IMG/VR virus record: IMGVR_UViG_3300030060_003743
Location: 1-61,212 of that record
Reading direction: 5' to 3' (one strand)
DNA: 61,212 nucleotides
Origin: a virus
Taxonomy: Duplodnaviria; Caudoviricetes
Below the pieces are notes generated by a model, which saw nothing but the letters and a program-made list of their open reading frames with translations, ran no database searches and had not been told where the DNA came from. This document shows positions 8,994 to 61,212 of the stretch, piece by piece. Every line of letters starts with the position of its first letter. Within the stretch, counting starts at the first letter, position 1. A program made the position numbers and the translations under genes.

Positions 8994-11900
8994 CGCTCCT
9001 CCCTTGTCTTTGTGCTAATAATGAACCTATTGGATCATCCGGAAAAATGCTTTCATAAGTTAATTGATCACCTTCATTTTGTCGTGGGGGTGGTACCATA
9101 GGTGCAGGTGATGTAGGAGCCTCTGGCACCGTGGCAGGTGGCTCTTGTGGCTCAGGTGCCGGTGTTTGTGCAGGTGGTGGATTAGGACTGTTGTACTCCT
9201 TTTCTTTTCTTTGCCTAGACCTTTCAAGAGTTTTGTAAGCATCTTGTATTTCTTGAGGTAATAACCTCCTACGATAAATGTCAGGAAACATTCTTCTTTG
9301 TAATCTAGGGCTTAAATCATCGTAATCAAAATCTGCTTTTGGTACAAAAGTAGGACCCTCGTTTAACAGTCTACTTATTTCTTCAAAAGTAATCTTGCTA
9401 ACATCTACTCTAGACGGTTTATCAGCTTCTTTCTGTTCTAATCCGGGAGGATCGCCGAATAATTTTTCTAATAGGTAAGCAGTAGAAACTCTTTTTCTTG
9501 GCATTACATGATCCATGATATAAGTACTTTGAATGTCTTTAACTCTTTGTTCTGGCGATGCGATATCTAACAAAGCTCTTGCAGCTTTAGGGTCTGCAAG
9601 AAATCTTCCTAATTTACTTAAGCCAACTATCGATATAACTGTTGCAGGTAAGCCTATACTTCCTATTGAAGCTCCACCAATTAATAATTTTGTTGGATCT
9701 AAAATACCACTAAGACCTTGTAAACCTAACCTTCTTGTTAAGAATTGAGAAGTGTTGCCCGGTGCAGCACTTTCAAGTTGTTCAAACACTTCAGTCATTT
9801 TTTTCAAAGCATTTAATTGTGTGTCTGCTTCTTTTACAGTTCTACCTGATTGTATAAACATTTCTTTTAGAGCAGCTTCACCCCCTTCATCACCCAAGCC
9901 TAAATAATTTTTAAATTTAGTTACGTTAAAGTCACCAGCTTTTTCAGGAGAAAAGTCCAATACATTAAAGTTAATATCGTCTTTTATTTTTAATATTGAG
10001 TCTGGTTTAAATGACCTTGCTACTGAAAACTCTTTAGCCGCTGGATTCAAATCCATACCTCTAACAAATTCTGGAAACTCATCTAAACGTTTGTAATCTG
10101 TAACTCCTGCTTTTTGAGCTTTTGCTGTTATCTCTTGTATGCTTAAAGCTTGCGCACTCGGTGCGTTGGTAAAAGCTTGAGCGTAAGCGTCAAATAAATG
10201 TCTAGACGTCATTCTCTCCATGGTAGTTTGACCTATTTGACGTAAATTATACCTTTGACCAGGTCCAGAAGTTAAATCTTTAATATCTCTTTTAGGATTT
10301 TTGCCACCAAGTAACCCTGCGAAATCTGATATAGTTTGAGCATCTTTGCTTCTAAAAACAACTTTAGAAAGATGGTTAAACATACCTGCTGGAGTTACTT
10401 TTTCTGAGCCAGATATATCAAACAATGTTAAATTAGTAAATAAATCGCCATCCTGAGCTTTTAAAGCTCTAGCTACCGCTGCGTCATTAAAAGGCATAAC
10501 GCTAGCAAAGAAAAAACCATCTCCCATTCTCTGCGACTCATAAAAAGATTTTAAATCAATTTTTGTTTGCATACGTGCACTGGCAGGAATATTTGCTCCA
10601 TCCATAGCTTTGTTAAAAGCAACCTCTCCTGCGTCAAAAAATCTTAAATCTTTTTCTAACGCAAATTTTATGTCAAATAAACTGGTTAACTGTTTTCTAG
10701 AAATTTTATCTGCTCCTTCTCCTATGGCTTTATTAATAATTCTATGCAGATCAAAGAATTCTGCCCCACTTATATAAAGAGGTGATATTTCGTCTGCTGC
10801 TCGTGCATCAGCACGAAATCCATCAAGTCCAGATGCTAAATCATCTAAAAAAGTTCCTTTACCAGCTAACCTTCCAGCTTCAGTTGCTCCTACACCAAAC
10901 CCTTCACCTTTTATAAATTGAGGTAAGTTGCTAAATTCTTCTAAAGCTTTTCTTGCTGCTCCTAGAGAACTGTTCATTGGTATGAGCTTTTTATCTTTTA
11001 AAGTTTCAAAGTTGTCTAATTTTAATTTAACGTTTTCATAAAGACGGTCTATCATGCGGTAGTTTTCTTTGAAGTTCTCTGCCATTACATTCCTTAACTG
11101 ATAGCCAAATAAATTAGCGTGTTGTACAGGACCGAAAGCTTTAATGTGTTCTAAAAAATTAGCACTTATTCGTTTTTGAGATTCAGCAAATTTTGGTGCG
11201 TAACCTCTAGAAGCACCGGGTAATACCCCTATGGTTCTACCATAACTGTTGACTAATTTACCCATAACAAAATCAGTATTAGCTAAAGCTGCTAAACTTA
11301 AAGTATCTTCTTGACCAGCATTAATTGCATATTTAAGTCTTCTTTTAGAAACCTCTCCACCAGTTCCCGTCAAAAACTTGGCTGCAAACTTGCCCATGGG
11401 TATCAAACCATAAGACAATATACCCTGTGTTCCTAAACCCCAAACTAAAGATTGAGTGTAATCATCCACTGCTCTGGTCAATATTCTTTCTGTTGGAGTT
11501 AGAGCATCAAAATCTCTTTTGTTTAAATCTTTTAAATCTAATTGTGAGGTGATGGCTAAACTTTTGTTAAAGTTATCTAAATCATACAACCCTCCACCAG
11601 CCACACCACCGACAGGAGCTACAAAAGTTAAACCTTTTAACTCAGCTTTTGTAGCTTCAGTCAATCCATATTTTCTAGCGACCTTAGCTTGTGCAGGTAT
11701 TCTACTTAAAGCAGGTAGTAAACCCAAAGATACTTTATCTAAAAATCCTGTGGTCAATTGAAATACTTTACCTATACCACGAGGTGCTTTACTCATTCCT
11801 TTAAATATTTTACCTAAACTTTGCGAAGTGCTTCTTGTTTCAATACCCAGTTTTTCTTTCAACGCTTGTGGTGCTTTAGTTCCAAAACGAGTACCAAATT

Positions 11901-48254: not shown

Positions 48255-48368
48255 TCAAGTATTATAACCATAACTAGACGTTTTACCAGTGTGTGCGTCT
48301 ATTCGACTTGCCAGCTTTACTACGGCGTGTGTGTGTCGGGCGTTTTCGTTATCGGGAAAATCCAAAAA

Positions 48369-48400
48369 ACAAAAAAAAGGCTCATTCGAAAATGAGCCTT
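48369..48400 (-). terminator. Intrinsic terminator upstream of terL (UUCG loop)
   Basis: Minus strand AAGGCTCATT-TTCG-AATGAGCCTT followed by a T-run. Confidence 0.85.
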
Positions 48401-48458
48401 GCAGAAATGGTGGTTATTCGGGGATATTGAATAACCACCCTGCCAAAATCAATTAGCT

Positions 48459-48617
48459 TTATTGATGTTTATCCTCTAATTTTTCCATTAGTTTTTTTTC
48501 TAATCCTTCGTAAAAGTTTTCCCATATATTTCTAGGTACACTTGAAAGACGCATATCCTTTTTAGCCTTTGCAATATATCTTTTTATTTTCTTTTTTTCT
48601 TTTTCGTATTCGTTCAT
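48459..48617 (-). CDS. 52-aa charged protein (not in ORF track)
   Basis: MNEYEKEKKKIKRYIAKAKKDMRL...; SD GAGGGGG; ATGA overlap with the upstream gene. Confidence 0.65.
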   Translation of the reverse strand: MNEYEKEKKKIKRYIAKAKKDMRLSSVPRNIWENFYEGLEKKLMEKLEDKHQ

Positions 48618-48925
48618 TCTTCCCCCTCAACAATTATGTCATTATTGGTATTTTCTTGCGTGATGAGTAACTTATCTTTTATAGGTTTTAATATCATCAT
48701 TATATGTAACATCAAGTCTTGCGATTGATTAGTACCCTGATACTTAATGCAATTTTCAGTTACTATTTTTTCAAGTAATCCAAAAAGTGTTATGTAGTCT
48801 AATTGGTCATTTTCAATTACACCTTGAATTGCTTGTTCAATATCCTGTGTATTTCTTAATTGACTTTCACAAAATTCGACAAGGTCAAACCCATTGTTTG
48901 TATTTCTATCATTATTATTTGGCAT
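48614..48925 (-). CDS. Hypothetical early protein
   Basis: Own promoter and AACATTGGG leader. Confidence 0.65.
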   Translation of the reverse strand: MPNNNDRNTNNGFDLVEFCESQLRNTQDIEQAIQGVIENDQLDYITLFGLLEKIVTENCIKYQGTNQSQDLMLHIMMILKPIKDKLLITQENTNNDIIVEGEE

Positions 48926-48965
48926 TTTATTTTCCCAATGTTGATTAATATTATCTAACCTCTTA

Positions 48966-48993
48966 ATTATGGACTTATTAATATTAATTGCAA
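48966..48993 (-). promoter_or_regulatory. Sigma70-like promoter
   Basis: TTGCAA-N16-CATAAT upstream of the 48925 start. Confidence 0.55.
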
Positions 48994-49129
48994 TAGTTAA
49001 CTGTAATTAAATTTCAACACGAATGGACGTTTTCCCGCACCGAGATTTTGATGACGTTTTCCCGACCCGTACCGGTTTTCTTTAATAGGCGAAAATTTAA
49101 AAAAAACGTCAATGATCTCGGGAAATCTT

Positions 49130-49191
49130 AAAAAAACGAGCTCCTTATTTGCGATATTTCAACTTTCGGTATACTAGACTACCTCGAAAAT
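49130..49191. repeat. 62-bp dispersed repeat (copies at 49694-49755 and partial at 50336-50372)
   Basis: AAAAAAACGAGCT(C/G)CTTATTTGCGATATTTCAACTTTCGGTATACTAGACTACCT(C/T)GAAAAT; 2 mismatches between the full copies. Confidence 0.9.
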
Positions 49192-49283
49192 TTTAAGTTT
49201 TAACACGAATGAACTCCCGACCCGCACCGGTTTTCTTTAATAACCACAAGCCACAAAAAAAACGTAATCGATATCGGGAAAAT

Positions 49284-49637
49284 CTAATATGACGTTCTTT
49301 TTATTCTACCTATAAAGGGTGCGATTTTCTTGTTCACAAAATCTAAAACATCTTGAAAATTTTCTAATTGTTCACACGTTTTAGAATGACTGTAATTGTT
49401 AACCTCCATAATCGTAAATCTAGGACTATCTAAAAAACCTTGAGAAACTGCTTCCCGGTCTTTTAAATTTTTCTCATCTATCCAGATTTGCCACCCCTTG
49501 AAAGCGAACGAGGGACAAGCGTCATTATGCCATGATGAATTAATCCACTGATCCGGCAAATCGATATCAGCAAAAGTTTGTTCCCACCCTTCAAGCATAC
49601 TACAGCTTTTCCATTTATTGTCTTGTACTTCTAGCAT
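49284..49637 (-). CDS. Hypothetical early protein
   Basis: Start re-placed at MLEVQ after SD GGAGG; SW.NDACPSF motif. Confidence 0.7.
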   Translation of the reverse strand: MLEVQDNKWKSCSMLEGWEQTFADIDLPDQWINSSWHNDACPSFAFKGWQIWIDEKNLKDREAVSQGFLDSPRFTIMEVNNYSHSKTCEQLENFQDVLDFVNKKIAPFIGRIKRTSY

Positions 49638-49665
49638 TATTATACCTCCAATGTTGTGATAGCTT

Positions 49666-49695
49666 ATTATATACATATAATGCGATATAAAGCAA
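49666..49695 (-). promoter_or_regulatory. Sigma70-like promoter
   Basis: TTGCTT-N18-TATAAT. Confidence 0.6.
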
Positions 49696-49867
49696 AAAAA
49701 CGAGCTGCTTATTTGCGATATTTCAACTTTCGGTATACTAGACTACCTTGAAAATACAGGGTTTTAGGGCTTCAAAAGTTACGATCTAAATTTTCCGGAC
49801 CTGAGACCGGGCAGGCTGCTTTTAATGCGAAAAAATCATAAAAAAACGTCAACTTTATCGGGAAATT

Positions 49868-49963
49868 TCAAAAAAAATCGGAAATGACAACAAAGATGAG
49901 TAAAAAGATAATCCATAGACGAGGGAAAACTAGCCCGAGGGCTAGTAAAATTAAAATTTCCAA
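49868..49963 (-). CDS. 31-aa hydrophobic peptide (TTG start, not in ORF track)
   Basis: MEILILLALGLVFPRLWIIFLLIFVVISDFF; SD AGGGG; similar to 56620-56718. Overlaps a terminator-like hairpin. Confidence 0.5.
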   Translation of the reverse strand: MEILILLALGLVFPRLWIIFLLIFVVISDFF

Positions 49964-49976
49964 GTATTTTCCCCTA

Positions 49977-50261
49977 TTAAATAAACATTTTGCCAAAATT
50001 GGAATTTAAAAGTTCTTTGACGAGGTATCTAGTGACCTTAATTCCACATTTAGTTTGATAGTTATAAGAGCCAATGATGTTTGCTACTATGGTAAACGAA
50101 TATTCCTTCATGAGATTAGAAATTTGATTTGATATATCAACTTCTTCGCACAAAAATTCATAAACTTTCATTTGCTCATGGCTTTTAAAACCACCTTTTT
50201 TTGCGATTGCGTCTAAACTAGCTTTATATTCTTTCGAATAATGTCTTACTGTATATGGCAT
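49977..50261 (-). CDS. Hypothetical early protein
   Basis: Start re-placed at MPYTV after SD AGGGGG. Confidence 0.65.
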   Translation of the reverse strand: MPYTVRHYSKEYKASLDAIAKKGGFKSHEQMKVYEFLCEEVDISNQISNLMKEYSFTIVANIIGSYNYQTKCGIKVTRYLVKELLNSNFGKMFI

Positions 50262-50295
50262 AGTATTTCCCCCTAATGTTTTTAAAATACACCCC

Positions 50296-50324
50296 ATTTT
50301 ATGCTTTTTTTGCCAAAAAGTAAA
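50296..50324 (-). promoter_or_regulatory. Sigma70-like promoter
   Basis: TTTACT-N17-TAAAAT. Confidence 0.45.
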
Positions 50325-50414
50325 ATTTTTGACGTCCTTATTTGCGATATTTCAACTTTCAAGGTACTAGACCATGCCGATTTTTTTAATTTGACAAGAC
50401 AAATTACCGGTTGT

Positions 50415-50566
50415 GCAGCGCACGGTTCTGGAAACTTAAACATGAAATCCAGTAAAAAAGGCGACAACCATGTCGGGAATTTCCACAAAGACTGTCCAAA
50501 CCTCATCTACGGCCGTGAAAAAAGAAACGCAGCGCACGGGTCTGGAAACTTAAACATGAAATCCAG
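50415..50566. repeat. 38-bp direct repeat pair
   Basis: GCAGCGCACGG(T/G)TCTGGAAACTTAAACATGAAATCCAG at 50415-50452 and 50529-50566. Confidence 0.9.
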
Positions 50567-50742
50567 CAAAGAAGGCGTGGATCGTAACGGGAGTTTTCCC
50601 GATCCGCGGAACCTGGATGGCTTCTTTATATGCAAATCAATAATTTATAGACGTTTCTAGCATCGGGAAATCCTAGTCCAGGCGCACGGCTTCAGGTCAT
50701 CGCTGAAAACCTTGTACCTAGTGCATTGTGCCAAGAGACTTA

Positions 50743-51141
50743 TCATTTTCCCGCACCGCGCGCCGCCCGATGTATTAACAAGATTAATTTTTCATCAAAG
50801 ACGTCAGCCGCATCGGGAAATTCTGCAATTAGATGCACGGCTCTCGAATCATGGACTTCTAGAAGTTTGAGAGCGCACTGCGAGGCATGAAAATTTAAGA
50901 TAAAAGACTTTCCACCAACTTGTCTATGCTTAATGTGCCAATTAATTTGAAACTTTGAAAGGTTGCAATTCTTAACCTCATTGGCTTTTAATTCTAACCA
51001 AAAAGAACTGCCATCAATACACCCATAGATGTCAGGTATTCCATTGATTGTAGAGGATTCTATGCGAGTTAAAAACCAGCTTTTTTGTGTCTTTTGAATC
51101 AGGTTAAGTCTTTTCCAAATTTTTGATTCTGTTATCTTCAT
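50743..51141 (-). CDS. VRR-NUC / Holliday-junction resolvase-like nuclease
   Basis: TES..W, RIE, GIPD, WLELK, LS..QI.W.......GG.SFIL motifs. Confidence 0.85.
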   Translation of the reverse strand: MKITESKIWKRLNLIQKTQKSWFLTRIESSTINGIPDIYGCIDGSSFWLELKANEVKNCNLSKFQINWHIKHRQVGGKSFILNFHASQCALKLLEVHDSRAVHLIAEFPDAADVFDEKLILLIHRAARGAGK

Positions 51142-51146
51142 TCTAC

Positions 51147-51177
51147 AAAAAAAACCCCTGCAAGTATGAACAGGGGT
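51147..51177 (-). terminator. Intrinsic terminator-like hairpin
   Basis: Minus strand ACCCCTG-N10-CAGGGGT followed by a T-run, downstream of the 52634-51222 operon. Confidence 0.6.
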
Positions 51178-51221
51178 ATAAGTGTTGAGCTTTTTGTTAG
51201 CTCGAGGATATGACTTAAATA

Positions 51222-51473
51222 CTACTCGCCAACTAAGAAATCTTCAAGTTTTTTTTGACTGGCAGATTCTATGACTTGGTAAAAATCTTCCGTATCAAAA
51301 TACGGACTGCTATGAATCCATTGGGTATTGTCTACCATAATACGCAAATCTTGTGCATTAAATCCATAATCTATGTACTGCCTTACAGCTTGATTAAAGT
51401 TTCCATGAATTATACTTTCGCAAATTTCATCAAACTGTTTTTGCGTTCTATATTCCTTTTTAGTTTTTTCCAT
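51222..51473 (-). CDS. Hypothetical early protein
   Basis: SD GAGGAG; in operon. Confidence 0.65.
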   Translation of the reverse strand: MEKTKKEYRTQKQFDEICESIIHGNFNQAVRQYIDYGFNAQDLRIMVDNTQWIHSSPYFDTEDFYQVIESASQKKLEDFLVGE

Positions 51474-51485
51474 TTAACTCTCCTC

Positions 51486-51836
51486 TTATTGTTCACATTC
51501 ACATGAAATTCTTGAATGTATATCGTCGTAAGCTGATGATAAATTATAGTACCCTTTACCCTCACACATTTTACATTCTATTATTTCTTTTTTTGTTTCA
51601 ATAGTAGCCATGTCATTAGGTTTGCGATAGCAGTAACCATAATTAATAGCTCTTAAAATATAATATTTACCTTTTGGTAAAACCTTTACGACATCATCAA
51701 AATCAGATTCGTTAGCGCCTATGCTTAAAGCTATTGAATCTAACTTTTCAGCATCTACTAGTACTAAATCACCCGATACGGCTTCGTCATGTTCCCCAAA
51801 ATTGTCTATAAATGTTTCGTGTTCTTTATCCATCAT
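51486..51836 (-). CDS. Hypothetical protein with C-terminal CxxCxGxG/CxC motif
   Basis: CKMCEGKG...CEC; SD GGGGGG. Confidence 0.65.
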   Translation of the reverse strand: MMDKEHETFIDNFGEHDEAVSGDLVLVDAEKLDSIALSIGANESDFDDVVKVLPKGKYYILRAINYGYCYRKPNDMATIETKKEIIECKMCEGKGYYNLSSAYDDIHSRISCECEQ

Positions 51837-51842
51837 TCCCCC

Positions 51843-52634
51843 CTATGCTATGCAGAATCCACCAGACATTTTACAAAACTGAATAAAATCTTGAACGTTT
51901 TCCACATCAAAATTAAAATCAGCTTGTGGCTGGTATTGGTCAAGTAAAGAAAACAACTTTTTCTTATCTTCACTTTTAAGTTTATCTTCAAATTGTTCAA
52001 ACGTTATTCTAATACCTAACGAATTATCAGCAATTTTATATTCTTGATTCATTTCATACTTACGAAATAGCTTTTCAATTTCAGGCATCACCTCTTGATG
52101 ATTATATTCTTTTGCTTTTTTAGTCATCTTTGCCCATTTTATTGCCTCTTTTTCAGTATGACCATGTTTAATTAGTGCTTCTAAAGAACTGGATATTCTT
52201 AAAACAACATCCTCTTTGACTTCATAAAAATCATTAGAATGCCAAGCATCTCTGTCTTCTTCTTTAATCTCTCCTGTGAATTTTCCTATGTACTCGGCTA
52301 GGGGATGCCAATACCAAACATTATTATAGAAATGAAAACCTTCGTTTTCATTTATAACTTTAGACATCATTTTTTTAATATCGTGTTGTGTTTGTTCAGG
52401 CAAACCACTAAGTTTTTTTACTATATTATCAAGTTCTTTTTTCATGTCTTCATCTTTTAAAGGTGTTCCATGAAATAGCTCTACGAGTGAAATTTGGCGA
52501 CCAGTTTTATTGTATGCAGTAAAAGCATTAAAGTTTATGTCGTGGTTTTCGCATTTGTCTAAAAAAGGTTTCCAAACTTTTCCTAAATGTTCCTGTGAAT
52601 AAGCAGGACTAATTCCAAATAAATCAAAACCCAT
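51843..52634 (-). CDS. Hypothetical early protein
   Basis: MGFDLFG start, F..NVWYWHPL motif, ends F..FC..SGGF.I; own promoter. Confidence 0.7.
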   Translation of the reverse strand: MGFDLFGISPAYSQEHLGKVWKPFLDKCENHDINFNAFTAYNKTGRQISLVELFHGTPLKDEDMKKELDNIVKKLSGLPEQTQHDIKKMMSKVINENEGFHFYNNVWYWHPLAEYIGKFTGEIKEEDRDAWHSNDFYEVKEDVVLRISSSLEALIKHGHTEKEAIKWAKMTKKAKEYNHQEVMPEIEKLFRKYEMNQEYKIADNSLGIRITFEQFEDKLKSEDKKKLFSLLDQYQPQADFNFDVENVQDFIQFCKMSGGFCIA

Positions 52635-52668
52635 AATTATCTCCCAATGTTGATTAATGTGTACCCTT

Positions 52669-52696
52669 ATAATAGCAAATATTCAAGCATATACAA
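52669..52696 (-). promoter_or_regulatory. Sigma70-like promoter with extended -10
   Basis: TTGTAT-N16-TATTAT, with TG.n before the -10. Confidence 0.55.
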
Positions 52697-52760
52697 GAAA
52701 TTAATACTTTTTTAAAACGCTTGACTTTCAAGTTTCCCGAGCGCGGGACCTGGTTTTTTC

Positions 52761-52882
52761 CAATAATCTAGTAATTTAAAAAAAGACGTAATTAATGTCG
52801 GGAAATCTCACCACTGAGTCCCGGATCCGGGCTATCAATAATCTAGTAATTTAAAAAAAGACGTAATTAATGTCGGGAAATC
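52761..52882. repeat. Perfect 47-bp direct repeat, 75-bp period
   Basis: CAATAATCTAGTAATTTAAAAAAAGACGTAATTAATGTCGGGAAATC at 52761-52807 and 52836-52882. Confidence 0.95.
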
Positions 52883-52888
52883 CCACAG

Positions 52889-52917
52889 TTGACATACCCT
52901 ATTTAATCCTATGTAAT
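52889..52917 (+). promoter_or_regulatory. Sigma70-like promoter, probably leaderless
   Basis: TTGACA-N17-TGTAAT, 7 nt before ATG at 52925; no SD. Confidence 0.65.
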
Positions 52918-52924
52918 TATATTT

Positions 52925-53236
52925 ATGGAACAAAAAATAGACAAGTTTGGTAATTTAACCATACCTCTTTTTGACATAATTGATCAAAAAGACGCTGATA
53001 AATTTTATTATTTTTACATGGGCTTAGATAGGTCAATAAAAAAAGTAATAGAAAACGCTTTTTATCAGGCGTACACAAAAAATCTTTTAGATAGAAAAGA
53101 ACCCCATATCTTACATCGTGAGGAAAACGGCATCACATATATTGAGGTTGATCCTAGTGACATAATAAGAAATATAGAGATTATCAAAAAAATTATAGCC
53201 ACTAATGAAGTCGTACAAGAAGATGAAAACGAGTAA
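52925..53236 (+). CDS. Hypothetical protein
   Basis: 103-aa ORF directly behind a consensus promoter. Confidence 0.65.
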   Translation: MEQKIDKFGNLTIPLFDIIDQKDADKFYYFYMGLDRSIKKVIENAFYQAYTKNLLDRKEPHILHREENGITYIEVDPSDIIRNIEIIKKIIATNEVVQEDENE

Positions 53237-53474
53237 ACATCCTCTGTATATAGTTGTGTGGAAAGACCACACGTCTAACTCTTCCTGGCAAACTGAAGAA
53301 GAAATAAAAAAAGAAAAATATATATTAGCTTATAGTATAGGCTATTTACTTCATCAAGATAAAGAATGTGTTAAATTATGTAATACTTATACCTCTGACG
53401 AAGGGTACGGAGGTTTAGATCTTATTTTAAAATCTTGTATTGTTGAGATGTACGAAATAGAGATAATAGACTAG
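53205..53474 (+). CDS. Conserved small phage protein
   Basis: V.WKDH....SW, SIGYL, I.KSCI pattern. Confidence 0.7.
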   Translation: MKSYKKMKTSKHPLYIVVWKDHTSNSSWQTEEEIKKEKYILAYSIGYLLHQDKECVKLCNTYTSDEGYGGLDLILKSCIVEMYEIEIID

Positions 53475-53971
53475 TCTTTAACCTCACCTTGAATTATGAT
53501 TGTGTTAGCTCCAACTTTATCTTCAAGCTCTTTTAGTCTAGTTTCGAGCTGATCTCTAGACATTCCCTCTAAAGTGCTATGTGTTATTTCTTTCTTATCA
53601 ACATATTGACCGGCTAACTGACCAGACCTGAACTCTGCATTTATTGCTGCAGTATACTGACCCTTTTGCTCACTCCCATCTCTCAACCTTTCTAAAGTTT
53701 TATATCTTCTAAGTTTGTCTTTTTCATATTTGGCTTGTTCTTCACTCAACCTTATCTCTAAATACCTACACACATGCGGATTTGCCTCAGGACTAGTCAA
53801 CTTACTGGCCAAAGCCATAGCAGAATTATCACTCTTTGAACTGTAACCAGCTTTAATTAAGGCGTCTTTTTTAGATATAGTTCCCCAGTTTTCAACCAAA
53901 ATATCTACAAAAGCTTTTTGTTTTTCTGTCAAATCTTGAGAAGATCTGACTGTTTTTGGTTTTTGTGGCAT
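53471..53971 (-). CDS. terS: Terminase small subunit
   Basis: LTEKQKAFV, A..AGYS, AS.L HTH-like N-terminus; AAINAE...G.LAG.Y. Confidence 0.8.
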   Translation of the reverse strand: MPQKPKTVRSSQDLTEKQKAFVDILVENWGTISKKDALIKAGYSSKSDNSAMALASKLTSPEANPHVCRYLEIRLSEEQAKYEKDKLRRYKTLERLRDGSEQKGQYTAAINAEFRSGQLAGQYVDKKEITHSTLEGMSRDQLETRLKELEDKVGANTIIIQGEVKD

Positions 53972-54048
53972 AACATTCTCCTGTAATTATTATAATGTAA
54001 TTACTTACAAATTAAAAATATAAAAAAAAATCGCAAGTTCCAGTCCTC

Positions 54049-54150
54049 TTTTTCCTATTTTATAGGAAGTTTTCCTAGTTTTTTCCTAGTTTTTTCCTAG
54101 TTTAAATTCAACATAAGCCTATTGGTATGCTATTTTTCCTATTTTCCTAA
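54049..54150. repeat. TTCCTA(G) short-repeat array in AT-rich intergenic DNA
   Basis: TTCCTA at 54052, 54072, 54083, 54094, 54136 and 54144, plus inverted TAGGAA at 54063. Confidence 0.8.
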
Positions 54151-54211
54151 AATATTTGTTAATTTTATACTTTTTTTTAAAAAAAAGTTCTAAGCAACTG
54201 CATTATAGAAA

Positions 54212-54239
54212 TTGACTATGATTAATATAATGTTATCAT
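54212..54239 (+). promoter_or_regulatory. Sigma70-like promoter with extended -10 and no downstream plus-strand ORF
   Basis: TTGACT(54212-54217)-N16-TATCAT(54234-54239), with TG.n before the -10. Confidence 0.55.
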
Positions 54240-54245
54240 AGTGTC

Positions 54246-54295
54246 ACTGAGTACGTGATTCTCTTCCCCCAATGTTGATACTCGCGTACTCTCTC
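54246..54295 (+). ncRNA. Candidate hairpin small RNA with anti-RBS loop
   Basis: Stem GAGTACGTGA/TCGCGTACTC (G-U pair on plus strand) and loop TTCTCTTCCCCCAATGTTGATAC, complementary to the early-gene leaders. Ends are inferred. Confidence 0.5.
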
Positions 54296-54773
54296 AAATT
54301 ATCTTTGATATAAAAATAGTGGTCACAAAGTAATTCGGAGTAATTAATATTTCATCTCTTAACTTTTTAGTTTTTCTTCTTAGCCTTTGTTTTTCTTTTA
54401 AATTATCTAAACAATTGATTTTTTTGTACATTTTGTTATAGGTGTGCCACATTAACTGTCTTTTGGTAAACCTAACAACCCTGCTGGCAACTGCTTTTTT
54501 GTAAGAACTGATAACTGATTGTGCGTCAATGTCCGCACAGGTGCACACCTCTTGAAATTTAGATCCATTGTCTAATATCCAATTATGTGCCTCTAATTTT
54601 ATTAAAGAATTTTTTCTATCAGAATTAGTGATTAAAGTATCTTCAACCGCTGTTGTTAAAACAGACCTCCAAAGTTTTTTTTCACAACTTACACCGTCGT
54701 CTATTAACACATCTCTAGACATTTTAAAGCCCAGTGTTTGCAAAACTTCTGCTGATAAATTACTCATAATCAA
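54294..54773 (-). CDS. Conserved hypothetical protein (possible transcription regulator)
   Basis: E..LWR.VL..A..D, A..WI, F..VC..A.ID motifs. Confidence 0.6.
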   Translation of the reverse strand: MIMSNLSAEVLQTLGFKMSRDVLIDDGVSCEKKLWRSVLTTAVEDTLITNSDRKNSLIKLEAHNWILDNGSKFQEVCTCADIDAQSVISSYKKAVASRVVRFTKRQLMWHTYNKMYKKINCLDNLKEKQRLRRKTKKLRDEILITPNYFVTTIFISKII

Positions 54774-54988
54774 TGCCCGTAGGTTTTGATTAATGTAGAT
54801 AACATTTTTTCACAAACAAGTAAAGTTTGAGTGTTGTGACCTTTTTTAATAATTAAATATTCGTTATACAAGGCCTCCATGAGATGGTTTTTTGCCTCAT
54901 AATCCATGTCGGAGAGGTCAACGTCTTTGAACTGTTCCAAAGACATTTCTATGATATTTTCCCAGTCTATGTTTTTCTTTGACGACAT
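54770..54988 (-). CDS. Hypothetical protein
   Basis: Overlaps neighbours in the operon. Confidence 0.6.
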   Translation of the reverse strand: MSSKKNIDWENIIEMSLEQFKDVDLSDMDYEAKNHLMEALYNEYLIIKKGHNTQTLLVCEKMLSTLIKTYGH

Positions 54989-55182
54989 GAGTCATTTATA
55001 TCATCTTCTTCAACAATATCCAATAACTCATAGCCAGTGTGCCCAGTTCCATCGCATTTTGGACACAACATAGTACCTTCTCTAATCTCCACCACATTAC
55101 TTGGCAGTGGCGAATGATCCGTGTTGCGTGTACCATTTCCCGAGCAAGCCTCACATATTACATATTTTTTTACAATCGCCAT
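54967..55182 (-). CDS. DnaJ-type zinc-finger protein
   Basis: CEACSGNG and CPKCDGTG. Confidence 0.75.
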   Translation of the reverse strand: MAIVKKYVICEACSGNGTRNTDHSPLPSNVVEIREGTMLCPKCDGTGHTGYELLDIVEEDDINDSCRQRKT

Positions 55183-55190
55183 TTTTTCTC

Positions 55191-55400
55191 CTATAAAACT
55201 TTTTCATTAAGATTGTCCAACAAACTCTTCTTAAAAGCTTCCTGGTCAACACCCTCACTGATAGATAGTTTCTCTACCTCTTCATCTAGCATTTTAGTAA
55301 TTTGTGCGGCTGGCCCACGATAATTGTGTTTACTTACCGCTTTCAATAACTTATGATCTTCAACCTTAACAGCTACACTTTTCCACTTAGTTGCATCCAT
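55191..55400 (-). CDS. Ribbon-helix-helix-like DNA-binding protein
   Basis: KWKSVAV strand followed by two helices; SD GGAG. Confidence 0.6.
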   Translation of the reverse strand: MDATKWKSVAVKVEDHKLLKAVSKHNYRGPAAQITKMLDEEVEKLSISEGVDQEAFKKSLLDNLNEKVL

Positions 55401-57454: not shown

Positions 57455-58173
57455 ATGATTAGTTCACTCCTAAGTTTAGTAATTCCTACTTCACTTTTAG
57501 TAGGAACTTTTTTTGGATCTGGGTTTTTTAAACCATTTTCAAAAATATGCACCACCATTTTCATAACCTCTGGTGGTAAATTTCTTTTTGCTAAGTTTGC
57601 ACCGTAAGTGCAAAACACAATGTTACTTCTCTTTCTGCCTTTAGTTTTAGTGTAACCAGCCTGTGGCACCAATTGATCAGTGGATATGTTGCCGAGCGGT
57701 CTCTGCACACCCATGTCATAATTCCAACGAATCCAAGTAAACGGCTCTCCTGTGTATGGACAAAAGTAACCAAATTCTTTTTTTTGTTTTACCCATAAAT
57801 TCCAAAAAGATATAAATGTAGGATGTTCATGTATAAATCCATGTTTCTTTGCATTATTAACAGTGCCTCGCCACAACTCATGTAGGTACAACTGTTCGTC
57901 ACCTTTCTCTTTTAGAGCTATTCTGTTCTCTCTGTACTGCTCATCCATCTTCTTTTGTTTAGCTGATTGTCGATAGGCTTTTCTAGCCGCCATGCCTTTT
58001 GAACTAGACCTATATTTTCTTTGACTTTCTCGATAGCCTTCAGTTTGAGCATACCTCGCACTGCTGGCTTTGCCTTTAGCACTCTTATCATACTTTTTTT
58101 GAGTGGTTTTACGATTTGCTTTTTTTTGTTTTTTGTTTAATAAGTCTTTTTTCTTTGTATATTGATTTGCCAT
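57451..58173 (-). CDS. HNH/His-Me-like endonuclease, possibly degenerate
   Basis: Basic repeated N-terminus; CPYTG, ISTDQL.P..GY, NIVFC...N..K motifs. Confidence 0.55.
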   Translation of the reverse strand: MANQYTKKKDLLNKKQKKANRKTTQKKYDKSAKGKASSARYAQTEGYRESQRKYRSSSKGMAARKAYRQSAKQKKMDEQYRENRIALKEKGDEQLYLHELWRGTVNNAKKHGFIHEHPTFISFWNLWVKQKKEFGYFCPYTGEPFTWIRWNYDMGVQRPLGNISTDQLVPQAGYTKTKGRKRSNIVFCTYGANLAKRNLPPEVMKMVVHIFENGLKNPDPKKVPTKSEVGITKLRSELII

Positions 58174-58318: not shown

Positions 58319-60187
58319 TCATACTACCTCGCCGAAATCTTTTCCTAACGCTACGTCAACCACACTAGGCACCTTAAGTTCTATGCAGGTTTCCATAATT
58401 TTAGTAATTTTTTCGACTTGTTCTTGATTTACTATACTGAAACAAAGCTCATCATGGATTTGCAACATGGGTGTCATACCCTCTTTGTGGCAGTCAACGA
58501 CAGCTTGTTTGGTTTGATCAGCGGCACTACCTTGAATCAACCTATTTAACGCTTTATATGTAAAAGCACGTTTTATGTTGTTGGCACCGTATTTTGCAGA
58601 AGCGTTCTCAAATCGCTCCGCAGTGTGTATTCCAAAATCTTTGGGCTCCCACATATCAAAACGACATTTACGCCCTAATTTCGTCCTTATAACGCCTTCT
58701 GAGGCCGCTTTTTGCATACATTTATCAGACAAAAGCTTCACAAATGGCACTTTGTTGTTATATTGATTAATTAAATTAGTGGCTTCTTGAGAATCAAGTC
58801 CTAACATACCAGCCAACTTGTGTTTACCCATGCCATACATAAGACCTAAACCTATGGTTTTAGCTTGTTTACGCTCTATACCAACCAGGTCTGCGACTGT
58901 TTGATGAAAATCTGCGTCAGCGTTAGCGTAGGCTTCTACTAATTCCTCAGAACCAGTTAAACCTTCATCGACAGAAGCTGCATAGTGCACCACGAGCCGT
59001 GGTTCTTGTTGCGAATAGTCAAAGCTACCCCACTGGCAACCTTCTTCCGGTAAAAACAAACCTCTAATCAGTGGCCCAAACTCTTTGGATCTTGCTGGTA
59101 GTTGCTGTAAGTTTGGATTCGACATGGCCAGTCGACCACTAACTGTGCCGCCCTGATCATTTTTAATTTGTCTAATTTCTGAATGAATGCGTCCTTTATG
59201 TTCATATTTTAAAATAGAACTAATAAAGGTGTTATGAAATTTATTTACCTCTCTTGCCTGAACGATAAGTTTACTAATCTCATTAGGATTATTATTTAAC
59301 CAATTTTGTGTAAAGCTTGGTTCATCTGTTTTAGTTCTAGGGTACTCAATACCTAACTTATCAAAAGCAAATCCTATTTGTCTTGCAGCCCAAATATCAA
59401 CGTCCTGCCCAACTAACTTTTTAATTTTTCGCAATATCTCTTGTTCTTGTTTTTTAAAAGTAAACTGCATCTCAACTGTTTTATCCATGTCTACTCGAAT
59501 GCCAGTTTCTCTCATCTGCACTAAAATGGGTAACAGAGATTTTTCTAACTCCCAAATGGTTTCCAGACTTTGATTATATATTTCGCCTTTAAACCTCTGC
59601 CATAACAGAAGCGTGAGCCGTGCGTCTTGCTCTGCGTAGAAACCAACATGCTCTGCTGGTAACTTCCACATCTCACCTTTCGGGTCTACCCCGTGTTGCT
59701 GTGCAGCTTCTATTAAACCAGTCTCTGCTTTAAGTTCGCCAAGATAATCTTTCGACAACGAGTTTAAAGTGTAACTGTATCTATTTTCATCAATCAAAGC
59801 ACCGGCAACCATGGTGTCTACGATTTCGCCGTTAACATCAATATTCATCGACCGTAACCAGCCAACATCGTACTGAGCGTTATGAAATATTTTTGTCGCA
59901 GGCAAAGCACAAACATCCTTCATGTATTTAATGACCTGCTGCTTAATTAAATTACCACCACCAAAATGTGCAAAAGGAAAATACCCCTGCCACCCTTCAA
60001 CGGCTACCGCAAACCCAATGACATAACCACTTTTGGTTGCCCAACCTGCACCTTTACCATCTCTTAGTCCTTCGTCGCAAGTTTCTAAGTCAATCGCTAT
60101 CTCATCATAACCACTCAAATCTTTGTATTCGTTTGGCGCTGACCAAATGTGTTTTTTAAAGTTAAAAGTTAACTGCAGATTAGACAT
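58319..60187 (-). CDS. polA: DNA polymerase, family A (3'-5' exonuclease + polymerase)
   Basis: IDLET, FHNAQYD, YAEQD exonuclease motifs; GRL...NPNLQQ, DYSQQEPR, KTIGLGLMYG, IQGSAAD, QIHDEL. Confidence 0.96.
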   Translation of the reverse strand: MSNLQLTFNFKKHIWSAPNEYKDLSGYDEIAIDLETCDEGLRDGKGAGWATKSGYVIGFAVAVEGWQGYFPFAHFGGGNLIKQQVIKYMKDVCALPATKIFHNAQYDVGWLRSMNIDVNGEIVDTMVAGALIDENRYSYTLNSLSKDYLGELKAETGLIEAAQQHGVDPKGEMWKLPAEHVGFYAEQDARLTLLLWQRFKGEIYNQSLETIWELEKSLLPILVQMRETGIRVDMDKTVEMQFTFKKQEQEILRKIKKLVGQDVDIWAARQIGFAFDKLGIEYPRTKTDEPSFTQNWLNNNPNEISKLIVQAREVNKFHNTFISSILKYEHKGRIHSEIRQIKNDQGGTVSGRLAMSNPNLQQLPARSKEFGPLIRGLFLPEEGCQWGSFDYSQQEPRLVVHYAASVDEGLTGSEELVEAYANADADFHQTVADLVGIERKQAKTIGLGLMYGMGKHKLAGMLGLDSQEATNLINQYNNKVPFVKLLSDKCMQKAASEGVIRTKLGRKCRFDMWEPKDFGIHTAERFENASAKYGANNIKRAFTYKALNRLIQGSAADQTKQAVVDCHKEGMTPMLQIHDELCFSIVNQEQVEKITKIMETCIELKVPSVVDVALGKDFGEVV

Positions 60188-61212
60188 CCTTATTCTCCTG
60201 TATGTAAATTAAATAGTCTTTGCCAATTGGGTAATTATACTTATGGTCAGTTGATAATAAATGCAAAGAATCTTTAGCTCTGGTAACACCTGTGTAAATA
60301 ACTCTTTTTTCATCAGACTGCTCTTCAACATTTTTATGAGAAAAAGATGCTGGCCAGTTTGCTTTAGAATACAATAACACGTTGTCTGCCTCTCCCCCTT
60401 TAACAGAGTGTATAGTATCAATAATTATTTTTGGATCAGAGTCTAACGCTTTTTGTCCGTAACGTTGTAGCAAACGAACAAAGTACAACACCTGAGTAGG
60501 TGTAAAATTACGTTTTAAAATGTGCCACCATTCAAATTCTTTTTCAATTAATTTTAATTTTAAACCACACCACTCAACTAAATAATTAAAATCAATAACA
60601 ACATTGTCGGGTATGTTCATCCAAAATTTAGCTTGCCTGAAAGAAACATCTTCTAATTCTCTTATGTAGCGATACATGTTTTCAGCTTCACTTTTATCAA
60701 TACTTTTGTTTTTTTGCAGTTTAGTCCAACTCTTAATCGCTTTCCACTGTTTTTGATCAAAAGACTTATTGCCCTTATTGTCAGAAAAATACAAACCTGA
60801 AGTTTTAGCAAAGACCCGTAACTCATTAACAGTGGTGTTAACTCTACCTAGTACATACCAAGTTCCAGGCAAGTCTCCCACAGGCACTTCATTAAAATTT
60901 AAGTAACGTTTTACTGCGCCCTCTTTTTCTAAGTAATCATACTCTTTGTCCACACTGTCTATTATACCTCTTCTTATTATTTGTGAGAAATGATGAATGT
61001 CTTTTCCAAAACGTCTTGTTTTACGTAAGACAACTTTTCGTCCTGGAAAATACTCAGTGAAATATTTAGGATCAGCACCGTTCCAACGATAAATACCTTG
61101 ATCATCATCGCCAGCCAAATAAATTCTTTTTACATTGTCGGCCATCTTGTACACAACAGACCATTGTAAAGGTGTAAAGTCCTGAGCTTCATCTAGAATC
61201 AAGACTTCTAAC
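60180..61212 (-). CDS. UvrD/Rep-like helicase, C-terminal part
   Basis: ILDEAQD, AGDDDQGIY.WNGA, TIHSVKGGEAD, YTGVTRAK motifs. Confidence 0.92.
   Translation of the reverse strand, partial: LEVLILDEAQDFTPLQWSVVYKMADNVKRIYLAGDDDQGIYRWNGADPKYFTEYFPGRKVVLRKTRRFGKDIHHFSQIIRRGIIDSVDKEYDYLEKEGAVKRYLNFNEVPVGDLPGTWYVLGRVNTTVNELRVFAKTSGLYFSDNKGNKSFDQKQWKAIKSWTKLQKNKSIDKSEAENMYRYIRELEDVSFRQAKFWMNIPDNVVIDFNYLVEWCGLKLKLIEKEFEWWHILKRNFTPTQVLYFVRLLQRYGQKALDSDPKIIIDTIHSVKGGEADNVLLYSKANWPASFSHKNVEEQSDEKRVIYTGVTRAKDSLHLLSTDHKYNYPIGKDYLIYIQENKDV
61113..61212. repeat. Terminal overlap of a circular assembly (copy 2)
   Basis: Matches 1-100 except at one base. Confidence 0.95.

Follow-up and report, generated by a model that had tools for sequence, protein, structure and literature searches.

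A candidate plus-strand RNA beside terS with a loop complementary to cassette-gene leaders in an HTVC023P-type pelagiphage

In the phage genome analyzed here, a promoter and hairpin lie on the plus strand between a gp19-like gene and the small terminase gene terS, and the hairpin loop is complementary to a box in the leaders of several small genes. We consider a trans-acting anti-leader RNA, which would lower translation from these cassette leaders, to be the best explanation of this arrangement, with a probability of roughly 60%. The plus strand of the gp19-like/terS intergenic region would encode a non-coding RNA that is transcribed from a host-type sigma70 promoter and starts at about 54246. 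Its first 46 nt would fold into a stem-loop with a 23-nt C-rich loop showing UCUUCCCCCAAUGUUGAU, and this loop would pair in trans with a box, AUCAACAUUGGG, that is fused to the SD in short 5' leaders. The predicted targets are separately promoted small genes in the variable terS-terL block, most clearly those with starts at 52634, 48925, 49637, and 50261. Because the pairing would cover the SD, the most likely outcome would be that 30S binding is blocked, with or without cleavage of the duplex, and the leader genes would be turned down together. That the RNA is made, that it pairs in the cell, and how and when it would affect its targets are inferences from the sequence. If true, an RNA that controls separately promoted, exchangeable small genes via a shared box would constitute a simple post-transcriptional regulon, and such a regulon would account for the common leader on unrelated cassette genes.

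The window, by which we mean the whole stretch of DNA analyzed, is a virus record of 61,212 bp that is approximately 98% complete by estimate. Its sequence places the phage among the HTVC023P-type pelagiphages, marine kin of the phages that infect SAR11, and its large terminase and that of Pelagibacter phage HTVC023P share 74.4% identity. The minus strand carries nearly all of the window genes. The gene order common to the window and HTVC023P runs from DNA polymerase through small genes to the gp19-like gene, an intergenic region, and terS, and then through small, separately promoted genes spanning about 5 kb to terL. The candidate element sits in the 322-nt gap from the gp19-like gene to terS, where the relevant features are as follows.

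54294 to 54773, minus strand: gp19-like gene, 159 aa, 31% identity to HTVC023P gp19 (E 2e-26)
53471 to 53971, minus strand: small terminase gene terS, downstream of the intergenic region with the element
54212 to 54239, plus strand: promoter P_plus, sigma70-like with an extended -10
54249 to 54291, plus strand: 5' stem-loop of the candidate RNA, with loop 54259-54281 between arms 54249-54258 and 54282-54291
54262 to 54279, plus strand: predicted anti-leader seed UCUUCCCCCAAUGUUGAU, complement of the leader box and the G-rich SD

The gp19-like gene is convergent with the candidate RNA, and 2 nt separate its stop codon (54294-54296) from the end of the stem at 54291. Nearer homologs of the gp19-like protein are 97, 82, 80, and 67% identical to it. 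The protein matches no Pfam or PHROG family. Its predicted structure consists of helices throughout (pLDDT 78) and resembles no PDB entry at E<=0.001. At the DNA level, megablast with 53400-55400 as query gave no match among phage records. The helicase gene is split over the ends of the record (1-705 and 60180-61212), so the assembly is circularly permuted.

A plus-strand gene pair at 52925-53474 encodes proteins of 103 and 89 aa, the second of which matches phrog_25889; the pair has a perfect TTGACA -35 ahead of it, is convergent with terS, and is conserved in the relative L015. At 54040-54150, CTAGGAAAA-type iterons, both direct and inverted, are followed by a conserved GAGGAC element, and iterons of this type also occur at 3820-3930 in L010, 5680-5790 in L166, and 8640-8750 in L187. 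Iterons with GAGGAC are found upstream of terS in all lineages examined, HTVC023P included, and this stretch may be a site of terminase binding (pac) or of late-promoter control.

P_plus consists of a TTGACT -35 hexamer (54212-54217), a 16-nt spacer, a TG (54231-54232), and a TATCAT -10 hexamer (54234-54239), with a predicted transcription start near 54246. Promoter-like sites that score at least 10/12 number 35 in the whole 61,212-bp record, 15 on the plus and 20 on the minus strand, and only 2 of them, at 54212 and 58737, have the TG as well. A preliminary description of this DNA had noted a promoter with no ORF behind it and no U-tract 3' of the stem, and both observations hold. No plus-strand ORF of at least 30 aa begins within 54246-54567, and the nearest plus-strand terminator-like site lies about 680 nt further on, at 54922-54945. 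The candidate thus appears to have its own promoter, as a classical trans-acting sRNA does, but unlike such an sRNA it has no intrinsic terminator behind the stem that would delimit a discrete small RNA.

The stem comprises 10 bp and encloses the 23-nt loop TTCTCTTCCCCCAATGTTGATAC, a large one by the standard of kissing loops. Folding energy is -14.5 kcal/mol for the plus strand (z -4.33), with 1 of 200 shuffles equally good, and -12.6 kcal/mol (z -3.61) for the minus strand, which has one C.A mismatch. This agrees with the earlier statement that the stem pairs fully on the plus strand only; the strand preference is real, but it is small since the energies of the two strands are about 2 kcal/mol apart. 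Rfam yielded no match at the gathering threshold in the whole window and none at E<=1 within 53900-54500. A small ORF behind the minus-strand loop box was considered and rejected, as no ATG, GTG, or TTG stands at SD distance from this box in the window or in its relative L013.

The leaders that the loop is predicted to recognize are listed here with the energies of their loop duplexes.

52634 to 52654, minus strand: target leader 1, 263-aa MGFD gene, with box ATCAACATTGGG at 52643-52654, SD, and ATG; -20.3 kcal/mol
48925 to 48945, minus strand: target leader 2, 103-aa gene, with box ATCAACATTGGG at 48934-48945 and ATG; -19.4 kcal/mol
49637 to 49656, minus strand: target leader 3, with CAACATTGGAGG at 49645-49656 and ATG at 49637; -15.5 kcal/mol
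50261 to 50280, minus strand: target leader 4, with AACATTAGGGGGAA at 50267-50280 and ATG at 50261; -19.3 kcal/mol
48618 to 48626, minus strand: SD-only match GGGGGAAGA of a 52-aa gene, without the box; -18.9 kcal/mol

The sequence ATCAACATTGGG occurs exactly 3 times, always on the minus strand (48934-48945, 52643-52654, and 54268-54279), and its backwards control has no match. The shorter CAACATTGG occurs exactly 4 times, again always on the minus strand, with the extra copy at 49648-49656; when one mismatch is allowed there are 21 matches against 17.65 expected, which is chance level. A genome-wide count of the box, which the preliminary description had proposed, therefore places exact copies only in leaders and in the loop, and on one strand. 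Both the box counts and the duplex energies support its claim that the loop is antisense to the SD leaders of the genes at 52634, 48925, 49637, and 50261, all of which start with ATG. Its list of 7 targets was too long, as those at 48617, 51836, and 58173 are SD matches only: the first 2 consist of the G-rich SD alone, and the match at 58173/58185 is trivial (-3.4 kcal/mol).

The cassette genes with the box lie between terS and terL. The distance from the box to the start codon is fixed (7-10 nt) while that to the -10 hexamer is variable (9-22 nt), indicating that the box is part of the 5'UTR/ribosome-binding region and not of the promoter. Three HTVC027P genes peak in early or extra temporal clusters according to the available text of PMC12753301, and the GenBank record puts these genes between terS and terL; by analogy, these clusters are the one indication, an indirect one, that the target genes may be early.

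Pairing of the loop distinguishes the cassette leaders from other starts. Duplexes with 6 cassette leaders range from -15.5 to -20.3 kcal/mol and those with 5 other starts from -3.4 to -12.6 kcal/mol, with the terS start at -6.6 and the gp19-like start at -7.6 kcal/mol. When all start regions were scanned, as had likewise been proposed, the best 4 of 85 ORF starts by loop duplex were all in the terS-terL cassette block. None of 4409 other 23-nt windows in the 14-kb neighborhood was better on the mean of the top 3 leaders. We thus predict an accessible seed complementary to several mRNA initiation regions. The longest exact match stands out in the window (12) and in HTVC023P (15) but not in L010 (11) or L187 (9-10). 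Due to A/T runs, composition shuffles often yield 9-11-mers, and the longest exact match was rejected as a general measure because shuffles reach such lengths.

The sequence features are observed directly, as are their conservation and the parallel systems in relatives. A search for further copies drew on relatives of terS (13 viral and 34 metagenome loci) and of the gp19-like gene and on the promoter-plus-arm pattern, and found the same hairpin in only one relative, L013/L015. A loose 14-nt loop pattern was also tried in IMG/VR and set aside as uninformative, having at least 115 chance matches. The window and L013 share 76% identity over 476 aligned columns. Within this alignment the -35 and -10 hexamers are each identical at 6/6 positions and the TG of the extended -10 is retained, with 11/17 identities in the promoter spacer and 5/9 in the discriminator; the loop core is identical at 16/16 positions and the loop flanks differ. 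In L013 the stem on the equivalent strand has 13 bp (-14.3 kcal/mol, z -4.33), and its U.G and G.U pairs correspond to C.A and A.C on the gene-sense strand. The inner part of the stem pairs by G-U/U-G on the plus-equivalent strand of the window as well as of L013, against A.C/C.A on the opposite strand.

On the side of the leaders, the box is retained in 3/3 orthologous L015 leaders with divergent flanks: the ortholog of the 52634 leader retains CAACATTGGGAG, that of the 48925 leader retains ATCAACATTGGGAG, and that of the 50261 leader has CAACATTGGGGAA. The cassette promoters show the same conservation pattern as P_plus between the window and L015. In this relative, then, the hairpin and its complementarity to the leaders are both conserved, a point that the preliminary description had proposed to check. 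The box is invariant between the window and L013/L015, which leaves no co-variation of loop and leader to follow in this pair.

Leader boxes differ among the lineages of the group, and each lies immediately upstream of the cassette-gene SD. Several lineages have an additional same-strand copy of their box between the gp19-like gene and terS, and these copies lie inside reverse-strand RNA-like structures. The cases of L010, L146, L187, and HTVC023P were found by match-seeking and carry that selection bias. HTVC027P and 023Pt_psg01 were left out of the comparison since their terS is inverted, and no additional copy was found in the L004-type lineage (gp19-like clusters L135 and L138) or in DSL-LC04.

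The L010 box, TGTTAACAATA, contains the palindrome TGTTAACA and has 3 exact copies in 38.8 kb, all on one strand. Its additional copy lies in the 28-nt loop of a 13-bp stem that folds at -19.5 kcal/mol (z -4.4) on the reverse strand and -15.8 kcal/mol (z -1.4) on the sense strand, and this hairpin is the 5'UTR of a reverse membrane-protein gene. A second reverse-strand hairpin at L010 3708-3755, formed by GGGGGAUU and AAUCCCCC with a 25-nt loop and followed by U6, stands behind a TTGTAA-17-TATATT promoter and is absent in the close relative L012. L186/L187 have no reverse gene; a stand-alone reverse-strand RNA abuts the gp19-like stop codon, and consists of a 5' hairpin, ACUCCGUUUGGUAU, an 11-bp terminator, and U7, where the leaders read (C)AAAACGGAG.

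In HTVC023P the additional copy is the complement of the box AACUAACAAAAAAGG and adjoins a reverse-strand terminator with U10, at about 10,810-10,880 of MN698239.1. The sequence AACTAACAAA occurs 6 times forward and 0 times in reverse in this phage; 4 copies are in cassette leaders, and one is in the 3'UTR of the reverse gene gp20, beside the terminator. An unannotated 30-codon hydrophobic ORF (L166 4886-4978; approximately 10,885-10,977 in the HTVC023P record) lies behind the additional box and an AAGG SD, and overlaps the gp20 3' end on the opposite strand.

A family of 8 contigs shares one further RNA of this kind, at these positions.

L146 461-541, L147 2822-2902, L151 5625-5705, and L199 7970-8050, reverse strand: structured RNA of the family
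L201 8669-8749, L208 5030-5110, L211 4949-5029, and L212 8669-8749, reverse strand: the same RNA

It runs from hairpin 1 through a single-stranded CCUUUCGU, a terminator, and a U-run to the ATG of a reverse gene whose product is a membrane protein about 80-98 aa long, and could also act as an attenuator of that gene. The CCUUUCGU seed is invariant in 8/8 contigs. The stems of hairpin 1 differ in sequence, with a C-G to U-A exchange in L151, and the terminator shows compensatory change in 7/15 pairs and contains G-U pairs. UAACGAAAGG is the leader sequence of this family, and about 7 of the 14 leaders of L201 have it. Seed and leader co-vary: changes in the 3' part of the seed, which is variable, are matched in the 5' part of the leader.

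L202: seed CCUUUCUCGUUA, leader UAACGAGAAAG
L208: seed ..CGUUAAUGAGG, leader CUCAUUAAUUGAAAGG
L146 and L212: seed ..CGUUUAUAU, leader AUAUAAACG

Co-variation with leaders, which the preliminary description had proposed to look for in relatives, is present in the seeds of other lineages. A terminator with a U-tail is present in L146/147/151, L199, L201, L208, L211, L212, L186/187, and HTVC023P. The reverse promoters of L010, L146, and L187 have a -10 that ends in A and are not called by the promoter scan. The motif CUCUUCC is common to the window loop and the 8-contig family; position and this motif are all that would speak for homology of the window hairpin with the RNAs of other lineages, and we do not claim it.

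A blind scan was conducted across lineages. From the 90 loci listed, those with at least 1500 nt downstream of terS and a gp19 match of more than 380 nt were kept, and grouping their gp19-like proteins at 85% identity left 20 clusters. Every 16-nt window was scored against the cassette leaders of the same locus, and p ranks the best window between gp19 and terS against blocks of equal size from other parts of the locus. On the reverse strand p<=0.02 in 5/20 lineages, namely our window, where 2 of 100 blocks were equally good, and L208, L211, L212, and L202, with 0 such blocks each. Among the 13 lineages new to inspection, 4 reached p<=0.02 and 9 were not significant at p<=0.05. The forward-strand control reached p<=0.1 in 0/20 lineages, with a minimum of 0.12. 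Block-level p was 0.13 for L166, 0.21 for L186, 0.22 for L010, 0.24 for L201, and 0.27 for L199, and the scan was likewise not significant for L193, L195, L240, L210, L205, L234, and L228. L151, which represents the L146 lineage, has one leader and is uninformative. The best reverse window of L135 (p 0.09) lies near terS at the GAGGAC element, outside any RNA-like structure.

An alternative that we regard as unlikely is that the plus-strand promoter is real but the loop-leader match has no trans role, either because the transcript acts in cis, antisense or convergent to the 3' end of the gp19-like mRNA, or because the element is the promoter-5'UTR remnant of a lost reverse gene. The stem is only 2 nt from the convergent gp19-like stop codon, and since the first terminator-like site comes at 54922, transcription would continue antisense across the gp19-like gene, as expected for a cis role, yet such a role leaves the tracking of seed and box across lineages unexplained. 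A remnant would fit the presence at this position, in L010, L142, and L146/147/151, of a reverse membrane-protein gene with the equivalent element in its 5'UTR, together with the lack of this gene in the window and L013. A dead 5'UTR should decay, however, and here the hexamers, the stem, and the 16-nt core are retained between two genomes that share 76% identity over the region. In addition, L186/L187 are without the reverse gene and retain a complete stand-alone RNA with seed and terminator.

It is quite improbable that the minus, gene-sense strand is the functional one. In that case the hairpin would belong to the upstream operon, as its 3' end or as a processing or stabilizing structure, and its loop would carry a fifth same-sense copy of box and SD, kept as a relic of a lost cassette or as a decoy for the ribosome, S1, or a phage protein. 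All box copies are indeed on the same strand in the window, in HTVC023P (6 forward, 0 reverse), and in L010 (3 exact), but the G-U pairs of the window, L013, L010, and the 8-contig family favor the other strand, as do the U-tracts of the terminators beside the copies in HTVC023P, L146, and L187. The minus strand does fold as well (-12.6, z -3.61), and in HTVC023P an SD-like AAGG, an ATG, and 30 open codons come after the copy; in the window and in L013, by contrast, the SD has no start codon behind it. As a relic, the loop copy shares 12-14 nt with the leaders, which is too short for upkeep by gene conversion, and yet it is conserved. The decoy that the preliminary description had offered as its own alternative is weakened by these terminators and G-U pairs in relatives, which point to the reverse strand.

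A DNA-level site (for cassette recombination, a nuclease, or a DNA-binding regulator), with the hairpin as an inverted repeat edging the variable region, would suit the repeated modules and whole-cassette differences of the terS-terL block (the 49189/49810 join) and the palindrome TGTTAACA within the L010 box, but is very improbable given stems that co-vary as RNA helices and contain G-U pairs, and a box whose fixed distance to SD and start (7-10 nt) and variable distance to the -10 (9-22 nt) suggest a role in RNA or translation.

The trans-acting anti-leader RNA, then, is supported in part, by the conserved promoter and hairpin, the best-pairing loop, and the tracking seeds in relatives, and 3 of the 7 targets first listed fall away. 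Its closest likeness among known systems is to the c4 (immI) RNA of P1/P7 and the CI RNA of P4, phage RNAs with exposed loops that pair with the phage's own mRNAs, including the ribosome-binding site, and that owe their specificity to short complementary boxes differing among related phages. The candidate would share this feature, having a loop complementary to its phage's own boxes and a specificity that differs among relatives. The c4 and CI RNAs are processed from the same transcript as their targets; in contrast, the candidate is on the strand opposite to all of its predicted targets and has its own promoter, these targets are several separately promoted leaders up to 5 kb away, and no lysogeny or immunity function is evident for it.

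As in S. aureus RNAIII and RsaE, a C-rich stretch in a hairpin loop would pair with the G-rich SD of several mRNAs. RNAIII and RsaE are host-encoded, however, and their UCCC motifs have 4-6 nt, whereas the candidate's seed extends over 12-16 nt and takes in a box that is specific to the phage and lies upstream of the SD. Lambda OOP RNA, which acts on cII, resembles the candidate in having a promoter against the main direction of transcription, and it is short and overlaps the 3' end of a convergent gene; the candidate would do so if its transcript ran on beyond the stem. Unlike the candidate, for which no terminator is seen and whose conserved part is a loop matching distant leaders, OOP has a terminator and acts in cis. 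The PeSL cassettes of T4-type phages resemble the leaders described here in being repeated units of promoter and leader that border small, variable genes in a plastic part of the genome, but PeSLs are thought to drive shuffling, and we know of no antisense partner for them.

More speculatively, HTVC023P-type pelagiphages might carry diversifying "lock-and-key" RNAs near terS, each with a seed for the box of its lineage, that serve as a master switch for accessory/early genes and silence co-infecting close relatives. We consider this extension doubtful; if true, it would be a form of RNA-based exclusion or immunity in lytic phages. To our knowledge, the timing of gene expression in pelagiphages is almost unknown. 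A literature search for pelagiphage small RNAs gave unrelated papers only, and we found no mention of promoters in the available text of the main comparative paper (PMC9599517). Cultured HTVC023P has the same layout, and the idea is therefore directly testable.

The terS-terL block (window 48300-52900) shows whole-cassette differences among close relatives in DNA runs, and 52858-54800 is nearly invariant, with 3-11 differences per contig piece in DNA contigs from 4 runs. In contigs from 2 runs, 49189 is connected to 49810 by 49 letters of other sequence, and replacements in DNA runs also affect 51493-51642 and 51827-51842. Units of the form TTTCCCGA...ACGTC(T)n recur in window 48340-52880, along with TCGGGAAA partners in inverted orientation. 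An approximately 60-bp repeat, GAAAGTTGAAATATCGCAAATAAG, lies ahead of 3 cassette promoters, and its L015 variant ends in ACACC.
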